Shown here: positions 2,922-46,435 of the stretch, one piece after another
How the letters are laid out: every line of letters starts with the position of its first letter
Numbering within the stretch: position 1 is the first letter of the stretch
NCBI RefSeq assembly: GCF_044324785.1
Contig: NZ_CP172127.1
Length of the DNA stretch: 64,000 nucleotides
Reading direction: 5' to 3' (one strand)
Source of the DNA: Escherichia coli
GTDB lineage: Bacteria > Pseudomonadota > Gammaproteobacteria > Enterobacterales > Enterobacteriaceae
Notes under the pieces: model-generated
Databases searched by the model: none
Told to the model about the DNA's origin: nothing
Seen by the model: the letters and a program-made list of their open reading frames with translations, nothing else
Program-made: the position numbers and the translations under genes

Positions 2922-3079
2922 CATAATTCCCCTGTGATGAAAATCTGATCACCTTGCCATAGCCTAATGCAGGATCACTCATCATCTGAAGGATATTTGG
3001 GGGAGGAGGACGGGGGCGGATAACTTTCGGAATAGCCGGATCAGGATTTCCTCCTGAACCGGCTTACAGAACGCAAGGA

Positions 3080-4453
3080 TTACTGGTTTTCAGCCAGCTG
3101 ACGATCGTGGCGGCGCTTAAACATCCAGCCAATCAACAGCACAACAATCCACGCGAAACCGACATACAGCGAGATACGCGTATCAGGGTGATAACCAATC
3201 AACCCGATAATAAAGAGCAGGAAAATCAAACCGCCGATGGTCGTTGCTACCCCACCCGGCACTTTAAATTTCAGCGCCTTAACTTCTTCTGGCGGCAAAC
3301 GGCGACGGAAGGCAATTTGCGACAGCAGGATCATAATCCACACCCACACCGTGGCGAAGGTTGCCAGCGAAGCGATTACCAGGAAGACGTTTTCCGGCAT
3401 GATGTAGTTCAGATACACCGCAAACAATAGCGCGGTAGTCATCACCAGCACCGTAACCCACGGAATACCGCGACGCGACGTTTTGCTGAAAATTTTCGGC
3501 GCGCTGCCCTGCTCTGCCATACCGTGGAGCATACGGCCTACGCCAAATACATCACTGTTAATTGCCGACAGCGAAGCGGTCAGCACAACAAAGTTAAGAA
3601 TGCTGGCGGCAAAGGTAATGCCCATATGCTGGAACGTCAGCACAAACGGGCTACCGGCAGTGCCAACCTGATTCCACGGGTAGATAGACATAATGACGAA
3701 CAGCGTACCAACATAGAACACCAGAATACGCATCGGCACGGAGTTAATCGCACGCGGAATCGATTTCTCAGGATCTTTCGCTTCACCGGCGGTAATCCCG
3801 ATAATTTCGATCCCACCGTAAGCAAACATCACCATTTGCAACGACATCACCATCCCAAGCCAGCCGTTACTGAAGAAGCCGCCGTTGCTCCACAGGTTAT
3901 GAATACCGGTCGGTTGCCCGCCGTTGCCAATCCCCCAGATGATGATGCCGAAACCGGCGACAATCATGATGATGATAGTGGCGACTTTAAAGAACGAGAA
4001 CCAGAATTCCAGCTCACCGAAGACCTTCACGCTCATCAGGTTTACGGCGCAAATGATCAGCACCACGCTCAGTACCCAAATCCAGTGCGGCACCGTCGGG
4101 AACCAGACACCCATATAGATACCAAAAGCGGTCACATCGGCGATGGCGACAATAAGGATTTCAAAGCAGTAGGTCCAGCCGGTAATGTAACCTGCCAGCG
4201 GGCCGAGGTTTTCCTGCGCATAACGGGAAAAAGAGCTGGCGGCCGGGTTATGTACCGACATTTCCCCCAGCGCACGCATAATGATATACGCTGCGATACC
4301 ACCGATAATATAGGCCAACAACACGCTCGGACCAGCCATTTTGATGGCGTCTGCCGAACCGTAAAACAACCCGGTGCCAATTGCTGAACCCAGTGCCATA
4401 AAGCGTATGTGGCGGGTACTTAGCCCACGCTTTAGCTTGTTCTTACTTTCCAT
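3080..4453 (-). CDS. proY: Proline-specific permease (APC family amino-acid transporter)
   Basis: [45 protein letters not shown]... recognised as ProY; multi-pass membrane protein. Confidence 0.93.
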
Positions 4454-42454: not shown

Positions 42455-43060
42455 GATTGTCTGCTCCCCTGTCTTGTTATAGGAGCAGTATTCAGGAATA
42501 AAAACATTCATTAAAAGAATTAGTCGTTATCGCACAGATGATTTTATTCTTAGCAAAAAAGCGGCAAAGGAAAGATTAAATATGCAATTACACCCACTCT
42601 GACAATTCAGTAAGTTACTGCACTTCATTTTATTAATGCATAAACAAGCAGATTATAATGTCTTTTATTTTATTAACAGCAATACATATAATGAAACCAT
42701 CATATTCACATCGCATATATAACTGTGTCATTCTCAATCAACCACATAATATATTCACATCATGTATATAATCCATATTTGCGCATAGAACATATTTTTA
42801 AATGTAATTAATTGACAAACTAAATCACATCTAAATACAATATATAAAACAAAATAACTATACAAACCAAACACACAAACACTTAACATATGAACTACAT
42901 AAAAGATTACGCAGTCGTATCCACGTACCTGAAAGCCCCTTATTTTTCAGCTATCAGTAATTTTTAACACTTAAATATTAGCATCTATCTGCGCCAGAGA
43001 TTACGTCTCTGCGGGCATCGTTGTGCTTGTAGTATAATAAATAAAATGGAGTGTCATTAA

Positions 43061-43732
43061 GTGGATAAGGTTTTAGATTCAGCCATCCTTTCTTCAGCAA
43101 ATAAAAGAAAGGGTATCCTTGCTATTGGCGCACATCCTGACGATATAGAATTGGGCTGTGGCGCGTCGCTCGCTCGTCTTGCAAAAAAAGGGTTCTATAT
43201 TGCAGCGGTAGTGATGACATCGGGTAATTCCGGCGTGAGTGAAATAATTAATCGACATCAGGAATCACTCGAAGCATTAAACATTTTGGGGTGTCAACAA
43301 ACTATTCATTTTAATTTTGCTGACACCCGTACTCATTTACAACTTAATGATATGATTTCCGCTCTGGAAGATGTCCTTAAAAAACAAATTCCGTCTGATG
43401 TAGAAATCATTCGTGTATACACCATGCATGATGCTGACCGCCATCAGGATCATCTTGCAGTCTATCAAGCCTCAATGGTTGCCTGTCGCGCTATTCCGCA
43501 AATTCTCGGCTATGAAACGCCAAGTACCTGGCTTTCATTTATGCCACAGGTTTTTGAATCCGTGGAAGAGGAATATTTCACCATTAAACTGGCTGCATTA
43601 AAACAGCATAAGAGCCAGGGCCATCGTGATTATATGCGCCCGGATCGCCTGCGTGCAGTTGCACAATTTCGCGGGCAACAGGTCAATAGCGATCTGGGTG
43701 AAGGCTTTGTAATTCATAAAATGATTCTTTGA
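43061..43732 (+). CDS. yaiS: PIG-L/LmbE-family N-acetylglucosaminyl deacetylase-like protein
   Basis: ORF from GTG at 43061 with GGAG 9 nt upstream; AHPDDIELGCGA motif typical of the PIG-L/LmbE deacetylase fold; recognised as YaiS-like. Exact start is uncertain. Confidence 0.8.
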   Translation: MDKVLDSAILSSANKRKGILAIGAHPDDIELGCGASLARLAKKGFYIAAVVMTSGNSGVSEIINRHQESLEALNILGCQQTIHFNFADTRTHLQLNDMISALEDVLKKQIPSDVEIIRVYTMHDADRHQDHLAVYQASMVACRAIPQILGYETPSTWLSFMPQVFESVEEEYFTIKLAALKQHKSQGHRDYMRPDRLRAVAQFRGQQVNSDLGEGFVIHKMIL

Positions 43733-43741
43733 GCAAATTGC

Positions 43742-44938
43742 ATGAAAACCTGGATATTTATCTGTATGTCCATAGCAATGTTGCTATGGTTTTTAAGTAC
43801 GCTAAAACGTAAACCCAGTCAAAAGAAAGGCTGTATTGACGCCATTATACCTGCGTATAACGAAGGCCCGTGTCTGGCACAGTCACTGGATAATCTGCTG
43901 CGTAACCCTTATTTTTGCCGGGTAATTTGCGTAAACGACGGCTCCACGGACAATACCGAATCGGTCATGGAGGAAGTCAAACGCAAATGGGGCGACCGCT
44001 TTGTTGCCGTCACGCAAAAAAATACCGGTAAAGGTGGTGCGCTGATGAATGGCCTCAATTACGCCACCTGCGACCAGGTTTTTTTAAGTGATGCCGACAC
44101 CTATGTTCCGCCCGATCAAGACGGAATGGGCTATATGCTGGCAGAAATTGAGCGCGGTGCCGATGCCGTAGGCGGCATTCCCTCTACTGCGTTGAAAGGC
44201 GCGGGTCTGTTACCACACATCCGCGCGACCGTAAAGTTGCCGATGATTGTTATGAAGCGCACGCTACAGCAGCTCGTGGGCGGCGCACCGTTTATTATCA
44301 GCGGTGCCTGCGGGATGTTCCGTACTGATGTATTGCGTAAGTTCGGTTTCTCGGATCGTACTAAAGTCGAAGACCTTGATCTCACCTGGACATTGGTGGC
44401 AAACGGCTACCGTATTCGGCAGGCGAATCGCTGCATCGTATACCCGCAGGAATGCAACAGCCCGCGTGAGGAGTGGCGTCGCTGGCGGCGTTGGATTGTG
44501 GGCTACGCGGTCTGTATGCGCCTGCATAAAAGACTTTTATTTAGCCGCTTCGGTATCTTCAGTATATTTCCTATGCTGTTGGTTGTGCTTTATGGCGTTG
44601 GGATTTATCTCACTACCTGGTTTAATGAATTCATCACCACCGGGCCGCATGGTGTGGTGTTGGCAATGTTTCCGCTTATCTGGGTCGGCGTAGTTTGTGT
44701 TATTGGTGCTTTTAGCGCCTGGTTTCATCGTTGCTGGTTGTTGGTGCCTTTAGCGCCGCTTTCCGTTGTGTATGTATTATTAGCTTATGCCATCTGGATT
44801 ATTTATGGACTTATTGCCTTTTTTACTGGACGCGAACCTCAGCGCGACAAACCCACCCGCTATTCCGCACTGGTGGAAGCGTCAACCGCTTATTCCCAAC
44901 CTTCTGCTACAGGAACTGAAAAACTATCTGAAGCTTAA
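43742..44938 (+). CDS. yaiP: Family 2 glycosyltransferase with C-terminal transmembrane segments
   Basis: 398-aa ORF; GT2-like N-terminal domain (AIIPAYNEG, VICVNDGSTDNT, LSDADT) followed by hydrophobic helices; recognised as YaiP-like. Confidence 0.85.
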   Translation: MKTWIFICMSIAMLLWFLSTLKRKPSQKKGCIDAIIPAYNEGPCLAQSLDNLLRNPYFCRVICVNDGSTDNTESVMEEVKRKWGDRFVAVTQKNTGKGGALMNGLNYATCDQVFLSDADTYVPPDQDGMGYMLAEIERGADAVGGIPSTALKGAGLLPHIRATVKLPMIVMKRTLQQLVGGAPFIISGACGMFRTDVLRKFGFSDRTKVEDLDLTWTLVANGYRIRQANRCIVYPQECNSPREEWRRWRRWIVGYAVCMRLHKRLLFSRFGIFSIFPMLLVVLYGVGIYLTTWFNEFITTGPHGVVLAMFPLIWVGVVCVIGAFSAWFHRCWLLVPLAPLSVVYVLLAYAIWIIYGLIAFFTGREPQRDKPTRYSALVEASTAYSQPSATGTEKLSEA

Positions 44939-45497
44939 TGTTAAAGAGAAAAACATTCAGATTGCAGACCAGGTAATTATTGATGAAACTGCAGGTGAAG
45001 TTGTTATCGGCGCGAATACCCGTATTTGTCATGGTGCCGTTATTCAGGGTCCGGTAGTGATTGGCGCAAACTGCCTGATAGGTAATTATGCGTTTATTCG
45101 TCCTGACACAATAATCAGCAATGGCGTAAAAATTGGTTTTGCCACCGAAATTAAAAATGCGGTTATTGAAGCGGAATCAACGATTGGTCCGCAATGTTTT
45201 ATTGCTGACTCGGTAGTTGCAAACCAGGCATATTTGGGCGCACAAGTACGTACCAGTAATCATCGTCTGGATGAACAGCCTGTGTCTGTTCGAACTCCAG
45301 AGGGAATTATCGCTACCGGATGCGATAAATTAGGTTGTTATATCGGGCAGCATTCACGCCTTGGCGTACAAGTTATTATTTTGCCCGGGCGAATTATTTC
45401 CCCGAACACGCAACTTGGCCCACGCGTGATTGTAGAACGTAATTTACCTCCCGGAACTTATTCACTCCGACAAGAACTTATCCGTACAGGAGATTAA
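44787..45497 (+). CDS. yaiX: Hexapeptide-repeat (left-handed beta-helix) acyltransferase, apparently intact
   Basis: 236-aa ORF with repeated [LIV]-G-x-x-x-x hexapeptides (VIGANTRICHGAVIQGPVVIGANCLIGNYAFIRPDT...). The only in-frame ATG starts (44787, 44805) lie inside the 3' end of yaiP, so the true start is uncertain. Confidence 0.7.
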   Translation: MPSGLFMDLLPFLLDANLSATNPPAIPHWWKRQPLIPNLLLQELKNYLKLNVKEKNIQIADQVIIDETAGEVVIGANTRICHGAVIQGPVVIGANCLIGNYAFIRPDTIISNGVKIGFATEIKNAVIEAESTIGPQCFIADSVVANQAYLGAQVRTSNHRLDEQPVSVRTPEGIIATGCDKLGCYIGQHSRLGVQVIILPGRIISPNTQLGPRVIVERNLPPGTYSLRQELIRTGD

Positions 45498-45498
45498 A

Positions 45499-46272
45499 AT
45501 GATAAAACGGACGTTATTAGCGGCGGTCATTTTTAGCGCATTGCCCGCTTATGCCGGGTTAACTTCCATTACCGCGGGCTACGATTTCACCGATTATTCT
45601 GGCGATCATGGCAACCGTAATTTAGCGTATGCTGAACTGGTGGCGAAAGTTGAAAACGCAACGCTGCTTTTTAATCTTTCCCAGGGGCGTCGTGATTATG
45701 AAACTGAACATTTCAATGCCACTCGCGGTCAGGGTGCGGTCTGGTATAAATGGAATAACTGGCTGACAACCCGAACGGGTATTGCCTTTGCGGATAATAC
45801 GCCGGTCTTTGCCCGCCAGGATTTTCGTCAGGATATTAACCTGGCACTGTTGCCAAAAACGCTTTTCACGACCGGTTATCGCTACACGAAATATTACGAT
45901 GATGTCGAAGTCGATGCCTGGCAAGGCGGCGTATCACTCTATACTGGCCCGGTGATCACCAGCTATCGCTATACCCATTATGACTCCAGCGATGCAGGTG
46001 GTAGTTACAGCAATATGATTTCCGTGCGTCTGAATGACCCCCGCGGCACTGGTTATACTCAACTATGGCTAAGCCGCGGCACAGGTGCTTACACCTATGA
46101 CTGGACGCCAGAAACACGCTACGGCAGCATGAAGAGCGTCAGTTTGCAACGTATTCAACCGCTGACTGAGCAACTTAATCTCGGGCTGACGGCAGGTAAA
46201 GTGTGGTACGACACCCCAACCGATGATTATAACGGTCTGCAACTTGCAGCCCATCTGACCTGGAAATTCTGA
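45499..46272 (+). CDS. yaiO: Outer-membrane beta-barrel protein YaiO
   Basis: 257-aa ORF MIKRTLLAAVIFSALPAYAGLTSITAGYDFTDYSGDHGNRNLAYAEL... with signal peptide and C-terminal Phe; recognised as YaiO. Confidence 0.9.
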   Translation: MIKRTLLAAVIFSALPAYAGLTSITAGYDFTDYSGDHGNRNLAYAELVAKVENATLLFNLSQGRRDYETEHFNATRGQGAVWYKWNNWLTTRTGIAFADNTPVFARQDFRQDINLALLPKTLFTTGYRYTKYYDDVEVDAWQGGVSLYTGPVITSYRYTHYDSSDAGGSYSNMISVRLNDPRGTGYTQLWLSRGTGAYTYDWTPETRYGSMKSVSLQRIQPLTEQLNLGLTAGKVWYDTPTDDYNGLQLAAHLTWKF

Positions 46273-46384: not shown

Positions 46385-46435
46385 ATACTATAGGGGGGTA
46401 TGCATTGACATATAGAATACCCCCCCTATAGTATA
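46385..46435. promoter_or_regulatory. frmRAB promoter-operator: inverted repeat with G6/C7 tracts flanking a TTGACA -35-like hexamer (FrmR operator)
   Basis: ATACTATAGGGGGGTAT (46385-46401) and ATACCCCCCCTATAGTAT (46417-46434) are near-perfect inverted repeats separated by gcattgacatataga, 26 bp upstream of the frmR start. Confidence 0.75.

Follow-up and report, generated by a model that had tools for sequence, protein, structure and literature searches.

Palleja et al. (2008, PMC2478687) examined 715 co-directional overlaps between bacterial genes and found none longer than 60 nucleotides (nt) to be genuine, the longest real case being holD/rimI with 32-56 nt; unidirectional overlaps are known to arise when a start or stop codon is lost and a new one within the adjacent gene takes over (Fonseca et al. 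2013, PMC3887535). The junction analysed here is that of the glycosyltransferase gene yaiP and the hexapeptide acyltransferase gene yaiX on a stretch of 64,000 nt from Escherichia coli (RefSeq assembly GCF_044324785.1, contig NZ_CP172127.1; this whole stretch is called the window), where yaiX probably starts at an ATG inside yaiP. Like holD/rimI, the two genes are operon neighbours that overlap out of frame on the same strand, with an arrangement kept across enteric genera and with both protein ends conserved. The pair differs from holD/rimI in the length of the overlap (at least 68 nt with any start, 134 nt in the best model), in being a derived state of traceable origin, a 14-nt overlap having grown at both ends, and in being constrained in both frames only over its first third. 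With a yaiX start that appears to have moved upstream and a yaiP stop lost with read-through, it follows the model of Fonseca et al. and resembles category v of Palleja et al. ('5' and 3' extension'); whereas Palleja et al. took such cases for annotation or sequencing errors, the extensions of yaiP/yaiX consist of real sequence that is fixed throughout the clade, the 5' extension bearing a signature of selection. The pair is a new, unusually long example of a known overlap mechanism whose history can be traced; it does not represent a new kind of system. The two genes, the candidate starts and the sites next to them are as follows.

43742 to 44938, + strand: yaiP, a family-2 glycosyltransferase of 398 amino acids (aa) with stop TAA at 44936-44938, from the list of open reading frames (ORFs) and the RefSeq annotation of identical loci.
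44805 to 45497, + strand: proposed yaiX coding sequence, 230 aa plus stop, of which 134 nt are shared with yaiP.
44805 to 44807, + strand: most likely yaiX start ATG, embedded in the yaiP codons TAT-GGA (Tyr-Gly) and conserved in 16/16 enteric loci.
44796 to 44798, + strand: weak Shine-Dalgarno (SD)-like GGA, 6 nt upstream of ATG 44805, formed by an invariant yaiP Trp codon and the next base.
44787 to 44789, + strand: upstream ATG with which the 236-aa KEGG model begins, unlikely to be the main start.
44819 to 44824, + strand: run of six T, read as Phe-Phe in yaiP and as Pro-Phe-Leu in yaiX, a possible +1 slippage site conserved in most enteric loci.
44862 to 44864, + strand: ATT, a rival non-canonical start, with ATG at this position in several relatives.
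44916 to 44918, + strand: CTG, the RefSeq yaiX start (193-aa model), with a 23-nt overlap with yaiP.
44973 to 44975, + strand: GTA in the window and GTG in ST131/B2 strains, where it is the RefSeq start (174-aa model).

YaiP matches Pfam PF00535 (E = 7e-28), and the yaiX ORF, which runs one base ahead of the yaiP frame, is open over 44787-45497. Its only in-frame ATG codons are those at 44787 and 44805, both within yaiP (overlaps of 152 and 134 nt), as the original prediction had stated and as the ORF layout confirms; a TTG at 44814 also lies in the yaiX frame inside yaiP. The same prediction, that no ATG, GTG or TTG follows the yaiP stop before the beta-helix begins, also holds, the next such codon being the GTG at 45057, inside the Pfam Hexapep region that begins at about 45000. 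Four N-termini of YaiX are found in databases (236, 230, 193 and 174 aa). RefSeq uses CTG 44916 in most strains and GTG 44973 in ST131/B2, metagenome gene callers give the 230-aa form from 44805 (cluster P0001, 1737 members), and the 236-aa variant is used in KEGG-derived work (PMC13058169).

The history of the junction was traced through 25 loci for which DNA was compared, anchored on two consecutive Trp codons of yaiX (W-W). Sixteen are enteric, namely E. coli (two types), E. whittamii, four Citrobacter, Superficieibacter, four Salmonella, two Enterobacter, one metagenome-assembled genome (MAG) binned as Ignatzschineria and one record named Yersinia; the nine outgroup loci comprise seven proteobacterial ones (Pseudomonas, Acinetobacter, sphingomonads and other MAGs) and two homologues from the candidate phyla radiation (CPR). 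The enteric loci span at least five genera, with yaiP identities of 62-96% and synonymous divergence (dS) of up to 2.3; both ORFs are intact and the layout is conserved. Four positions define the comparison.

44868 to 44870, + strand: ancestral yaiX start position, now CAC (His); ATG or GTG in 9/9 outgroup loci, lost in 16/16 enteric loci.
44871 to 44876, + strand: W-W codons TGG TGG, present in 25/25 loci, the first YaiX residues common to distant homologues.
44879 to 44881, + strand: ancestral yaiP stop position, TGA in the outgroup alignment, now GCG (Ala).
44879 to 44935, + strand: read-through tail of YaiP, 19 poorly conserved residues over the conserved N-terminal region of yaiX.

In all nine outgroup loci an ATG or GTG directly precedes W-W, and the protein starts M-W-W. 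The outgroup junction is a 14-nt overlap, ATG-TGG-TGG-NNT-GA (ATGTGGTGGNNTGA), in which the yaiP TGA ends 11 nt past the start of the W-W codons (6/7 proteobacterial loci), and a GAGG ribosome-binding site (RBS) for yaiX is built from the yaiP Thr-Arg-Tyr codons ACG-AGG-TAC, the Arg codon being AGG or AGA in 6/6. The two CPR homologues start (A/G)TG-TGG-TGG with no yaiP upstream. Homologues at about 50% identity, mostly of 204-208 aa, start M-W-W-R-E-L and align to H28-W29-W30-K31-R32 of the 236-aa ORF, and dozens of metagenomic homologues of about 206 aa begin MWW. In one Sphingomonas MAG (L013, about 2950-3130) the 3' end of the yaiP homologue lies in a different frame from all other loci and stops 46 nt past the W-W codons; the probable cause is a frameshift or assembly error in the MAG.

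The enteric loci differ from this arrangement at each of the three sites. None of the 16 has an ATG at the ancestral start position, which reads CAC, TAC, CCT, CGG, CGT and others; all have the RBS replaced by the yaiP-synonymous codons ACC-CGC-TAT; and in all the yaiP stop has moved, to between +17 and +83 relative to W-W, the W-W codons of the window lying 68 nt before the end of yaiP (+68). All 16 carry an ATG at -63, -66 or -69 from W-W, which in the window is 44805 (-66). The aligned loci show a short coupling overlap that was enlarged from both sides in the enteric clade. Since the outgroup has two separate genes with a 14-nt overlap, each yaiX with its own ATG or GTG start and, in the proteobacterial loci, the GAGG RBS, the fused or frameshifted ancestor entertained in the original prediction is refuted. 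Alignment of orthologues, the check proposed there, places the conserved N-terminus of YaiX at the W-W codons, inside yaiP, and supports no start-capable codon past the yaiP stop. Whichever start is used, the overlap covers at least 68 nt, since translation in the yaiX frame includes the W-W codons and yaiP does not stop until 44936.

Within the overlap every third position in yaiP doubles as the second position in a yaiX codon, so selection in the yaiX frame should freeze synonymous sites of yaiP. As a test, 13 non-redundant enteric loci were compared pairwise, and third-position identity was scored at those columns where the amino acid is the same.

Rest of yaiP, 285 columns: third-position identity 0.447, taken as background.
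44804 to 44836, + strand: dual-constraint segment, yaiX M-D-L-L-P-F-L-L-D-A-N over yaiP Y-G-L-I-A-F-F-T-G-R-E; third-position identity 0.814, p = 2.8e-6 against background.
44837 to 44870, + strand: yaiP-dominated segment, yaiP P-Q-R-D-K-P-T-R-Y-S-A with the variable yaiX linker L-S-A-T-N-P-P-A-I-P-H.
44837 to 44860: third-position identity 0.436, no difference from background.
44861 to 44878: third-position identity 1.0, p = 0.0017.

The rise starts exactly at the ATG-forming TAT-GGA, the six columns just upstream being at or near background, and the highest window of 10 columns elsewhere in yaiP reaches 0.627. The T of TAT/CAT and the A of GGA that form ATG 44805 are invariant in 13/13 loci. 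Over the same 44804-44836 no such effect is seen in the outgroup (0.329, with a background of 0.387), and the synonymous constraint is therefore specific to the clade that lacks the old start. When codons were shuffled with each YaiP protein held fixed, the ATG kept in 13/13 loci had a probability of about 10^-1.9 and the open frame kept one of about 10^-3.3, under an assumption of independent loci that is tolerable, not exact, since dS is 0.8-2.3 for most pairs. An ungapped comparison of the seven loci that share the geometry of the window divides the overlap according to the frame that governs it.

44805 to 44837: amino-acid identity 0.81 (yaiX frame) and 0.84 (yaiP frame), governed by both.
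44838 to 44870: amino-acid identity 0.46 (yaiX frame) and 0.88 (yaiP frame), governed by yaiP.
44871 to 44936: amino-acid identity 0.60 (yaiX frame) and 0.37 (yaiP frame), governed by yaiX.

Three features expected of a genuine overlap are found at this junction: ORFs conserved across taxa, conserved YaiX residues inside yaiP, and clade-specific suppression of synonymous change.

Each start context was scored for its SD:anti-SD pairing energy and for the local folding energy of the region between -30 and +30, with 60-nt segments across yaiP for comparison (mean minimum free energy, MFE, -13.3, standard deviation 4.3). ATG 44805 has an SD energy (dG) of -3.1 kcal/mol at a 6-nt spacing and a local MFE of -3.9, the lowest structure of the 60-nt stretches sampled in yaiP; GGA, GGAG, GGGG or GGGUG stands at the SD position of 44796 in 16/16 enteric loci. 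ATG 44787 has no SD (dG +0.9) and a local MFE of -6.0, and the description of the RBS candidates as weak in the original prediction was thus accurate. Together with the conserved ATG and the frozen synonymous sites, these values make it probable that yaiX starts at ATG 44805, giving a YaiX of 230 aa and a real co-directional overlap of 134 nt with yaiP. Among the three options that had been left side by side, initiation inside yaiP is the one retained, at 44805 and not at 44787, while the non-canonical start and the fused ancestor are not. The 40-50 N-terminal residues that had been called uncertain can now be divided into an enteric-specific extension of 22 residues (M7-H28 of the 236-aa ORF) and the ancestral N-terminus from W29.

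The boundaries of both genes have thus shifted in the enteric lineage of the yaiS-yaiP-yaiX-yaiO operon. The ancestral yaiX ATG is lost (CAC 44868) and its RBS has been erased by changes synonymous in yaiP; the TGA of yaiP is lost as well, so that YaiP runs 19 residues further, to 44938; and initiation of yaiX would now take place at ATG 44805, 66 nt upstream of W-W, in an A/U-rich unstructured stretch. The product would carry a new N-terminal extension of 22 residues (MDLLPFLLD and a variable linker), followed by the ancestral protein from W-W. The overlap is tripartite, its first 11 codons being under both frames, the next 11 governed by yaiP and the last 22 by yaiX, and ATG 44787 may supply a minor 236-aa form in Escherichia.

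Several points weigh against initiation at 44805. The support for this start is comparative in kind, its RBS is weak, and the 22-residue extension is predicted to be disordered, with half of it not conserved as protein. The synonymous freeze over 44804-44836 could be a nucleotide-level signal and not a matter of translation, and the p-values are approximate, the enteric loci being phylogenetically related. Several relatives carry a second ATG two to four codons before W-W, at the ATT of the window, and the yaiX start may vary by lineage or there may be several starts. Co-directional overlaps of more than 60 nt have mostly turned out to be misannotations (Palleja 2008, PMC2478687).

The strongest of the other starts is the ATT at 44862, near the ancestral site, from which YaiX would have 211 aa and overlap yaiP by 77 nt, the conserved segment upstream being a non-coding, translation-enhancing or standby sequence. 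It would keep the entire conserved N-terminus; at two to four codons ahead of W-W, ATT, ATA, ATG or TTG stands in most enteric loci, the position is a true ATG, with the NCBI start placed there, in four lineages (Superficieibacter, Enterobacter PGRG2 and the Salmonella/E. bugandensis subclade), and the Tyr codon of yaiP from which the A and T of the ATT come is TAT in 12/12. In the window, however, the ATT has no SD (dG +0.4) and lies in a GC-rich, structured context (MFE -16.8), the 24 nt upstream vary synonymously as the background does, so that there is no conserved RBS, and the upstream ATG and open frame are kept even in lineages with the nearer ATG; a start here appears unlikely. KEGG-derived models take ATG 44787 as the main start, which gives 236 aa and an overlap of 152 nt; it is the first ATG of the ORF and lies in an A/U-rich stretch, and the 236-aa construct was active when overexpressed (PMC13058169). 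This ATG is limited to Escherichia and C. cronae and is absent from other enteric loci, it lacks the SD as given above, and the yaiP synonymous sites at 44786-44803 are at or near background, all of which makes it quite an unlikely main start. We consider the RefSeq model very unlikely; it comes from the NCBI pipeline, with a start at CTG 44916 (193 aa) 23 nt inside yaiP, perhaps by re-initiation after the yaiP stop, or at GTG 44973 in B2. Its overlap is short and ordinary, an AGGA stands just upstream of the CTG (dG -4.3, local MFE -5.3), and the position is NTG (CTG, GTG, TTG or ATG) in 12/13 E. coli-type loci. Yet the AGGA is just 1 nt from the codon; C. cronae has GTA instead, the Salmonella P0056 subclade lacks the codon, and the RefSeq choice differs between E. 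coli strains. This start would also cut away the W-W of 25/25 loci together with some 15 residues for which the yaiX frame is the conserved one (0.60, as opposed to 0.37 for the yaiP frame) and which are confidently predicted as folded; GTG 44973 would remove conserved residues too. The CTG model leaves the frozen synonymous sites at 44804-44836 unexplained. CUG and AUU each initiate at about 1-2% of the AUG level (Hecht 2016, 10.1101/063800). The T of the 44916 codon lies at a third position of yaiP, where the yaiP amino acid is freely variable. The NTG shows selection for a hydrophobic residue (L, V or M) in YaiX; it could also be a minor internal start. The infC and pcnB genes of E. coli have AUU starts. 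The CTG and ATT models would put yaiX in this non-AUG class, whereas the comparative evidence favours a normal AUG; the class was rejected for yaiX in view of the conserved folded residues upstream of CTG 44916 and the lack of a conserved RBS at ATT 44862.

Two further explanations dispense with a functional separate start. Ribosomes translating yaiP might slip by +1 on the T run (CC-TTT-TTT-A, 44819-44825) and produce a YaiP-YaiX fusion. A slip from TTT to TTT does land in the yaiX frame, and the run is conserved in most enteric loci, within the frozen segment; but the constraint begins at the ATG-forming TAT-GGA upstream of the run, which a frameshift site would not need, the arrangement persists in the Salmonella P0056 and P0048 subclades, whose run is interrupted (TTC-TTT), and in E. 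whittamii, where it is likewise broken, and the outgroup and CPR homologues are separate or stand-alone proteins. No Rfam match was found at E up to 1 in 44500-45200, a stimulatory element having otherwise not been looked for, and such slippage is very improbable here. That yaiX is decaying in E. coli after the loss of its start, or that the overlap stems from an error in sequencing or assembly, is also highly improbable. It is true that the ancestral start and SD have gone, and K-12 and BL21 carry an insertion sequence (IS) or a deletion at this place. Against decay, the ORF is intact in the 16 enteric loci, with a ratio of nonsynonymous to synonymous change (dN/dS) of 0.07-0.15 at dS up to 2.3, and repair of the K-12 copy gave a phenotype (PMC3531124). 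The identical junction occurs at 95% identity or more in 4826/5426 complete E. coli genomes, and its geometry recurs in Escherichia, Citrobacter, Salmonella, Enterobacter and Superficieibacter; a sequencing error behind the overlap, which the original prediction had allowed for, is therefore excluded, and the yaiX ORF does not exist by chance.

If yaiX does start at 44805, the overlap may possibly be dual-coding in a stricter sense. Its first 11 codons would then be a newborn selected peptide, MDLLPFLLD, overprinted on the end of the last YaiP membrane segment and giving YaiX a new property beyond the start-site context, for example docking to the YaiP synthase or to the membrane. We offer this reading tentatively, as the less likely account of the segment; if it were true, 134 nt would be more than twice the longest co-directional overlap accepted as real in bacteria.

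The yaiX gene is live and under purifying selection, the dN/dS of 0.07-0.15 having been obtained for its non-overlapping part among enteric loci at dS of 0.4-2.3. Repair of the IS2-disrupted K-12 yaiX caused vegetative clumping that depended on YaiP (EcoGene 3.0, PMC3531124), and overexpression phenotypes of yaiX have been reported, including with the 236-aa construct (PMC13058169). YaiX matches the Pfam family PF00132 (Hexapep) with E = 5e-18 and 64.4 bits against a cut-off of 27. An AlphaFold 2 (AF2) model of the 230-aa form was built from an alignment of 83 sequences that is shallow at the extension, so that the model is silent on the function of the extension. Its mean predicted local distance difference test score (pLDDT) is 85, with about 43 for residues 1-20, 74 for residues 21-30 and at least 90 thereafter, and the repeat region shows periodic short strands; because confidence rises there, the fold would start at about W-W, upstream of the RefSeq start. 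A phmmer search matched the body of YaiX to residues 241-397 of ST0452 of S. tokodaii (5z09, 2ggo; E = 3e-24), the nearest relative with a solved structure; these residues form a left-handed beta-helix (LbH) acetyltransferase domain, and YaiX residues 62-218 of the 230-aa form align to it and contain hexapeptide repeats. By this homology the body is a GlmU-type LbH acetyltransferase domain of predicted activity. Unlike GlmU-type enzymes, YaiX is a stand-alone LbH protein with no nucleotidyltransferase domain, and nothing in the solved structures corresponds to its N-terminal 60 or so residues, made up of the enteric extension and the W-W segment. Substitutions set the YaiX of the window (45100-45400) apart from the E. 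coli RefSeq cluster representative P0008: IRP-D-T has D in place of G, GQ-H-S has H in place of R, EAE-S-T has S in place of A, and LP-P-GT has P in place of A. Most relatives, too, differ from the window at the majority of these sites.

Retapamulin start-site data sets reportedly come from the strains K-12 BW25113 and BL21. In K-12 an IS2 lies inside yaiX (at about 45085-45089 of the window), and in BL21(DE3) an IS1 lies between yaiO and tauA, with yaiS, yaiP and yaiX lost. No start-site data for yaiX were found in the literature, PMC3531124 and PMC13058169 not addressing the start, and this lack is explained by the absence of an intact yaiX from both of these widely used laboratory lineages.

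The genes of the window around the junction are ordered tauA / yaiS / yaiP / yaiX / yaiO / frmR / frmA, as in E. coli, and the remaining features of the operon are as follows.

43061 to 43732, + strand: yaiS, a PIG-L family deacetylase and the first gene of the operon, a full-length ORF ending 9 nt before yaiP.
45000 to 45494, + strand: left-handed beta-helix (hexapeptide-repeat) acetyltransferase body of YaiX, from Pfam PF00132, AF2 and structure homology.
45499 to 46272, + strand: yaiO, an outer-membrane beta-barrel protein, starting 1 nt past the yaiX stop.

The SD of yaiO is good (dG -7.4). Judged by its gene families, the operon looks like a four-gene system for polysaccharide synthesis and export. 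A near-consensus sigma-70 promoter-like site lies upstream of yaiS at 42812-42841 (TTGACA, an 18-nt spacer and TACAAT; 11/12 matches) and is a candidate for the operon promoter; a similar site precedes frmR (46405-46432). The consensus scan found nothing promoter-like between 43000 and 45600, and an internal promoter or leaderless transcript at 44805 was dropped, the only strong site near the operon being that upstream of yaiS.

The yaiS gene is an allelic mosaic, the window differing by about 10% over approximately 43140-43650 from strain VCSW5, which is otherwise 99.8% identical, with identical flanks. In VCSW5 and SCEC020001, RefSeq labels yaiS as a C-terminally incomplete pseudogene, and an antisense ORF of 39 aa (YkiC-like) is annotated there. 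The operon behaves like a mobile island: Citrobacter braakii ATCC 51113 holds two diverged copies, in Salmonella and Enterobacter the operon adjoins fimbrial genes and IS elements, and 27-30 plasmid-borne copies are found among E. coli records, where a second type of the operon at 62% identity also occurs (P0050). In Enterobacter sp. PGRG2 the called yaiX (241 aa) is extended C-terminally and overlaps yaiO by 86 nt (L023, 3141-3226), a second long overlap, at the opposite end of yaiX; the same tail is found in the proteins P0036 and P0040.

The yaiP/yaiX pair is present in about 89% of complete E. coli genomes, and the RefSeq models of yaiX trim conserved residues, so the correct start matters for expressing or repairing this gene. 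The junction is a natural, traceable case in which a 14-nt coupling overlap became a long two-frame overlap through loss of a start, an RBS and a stop, and it shows that to trim every same-strand overlap longer than about 60 nt can be wrong.

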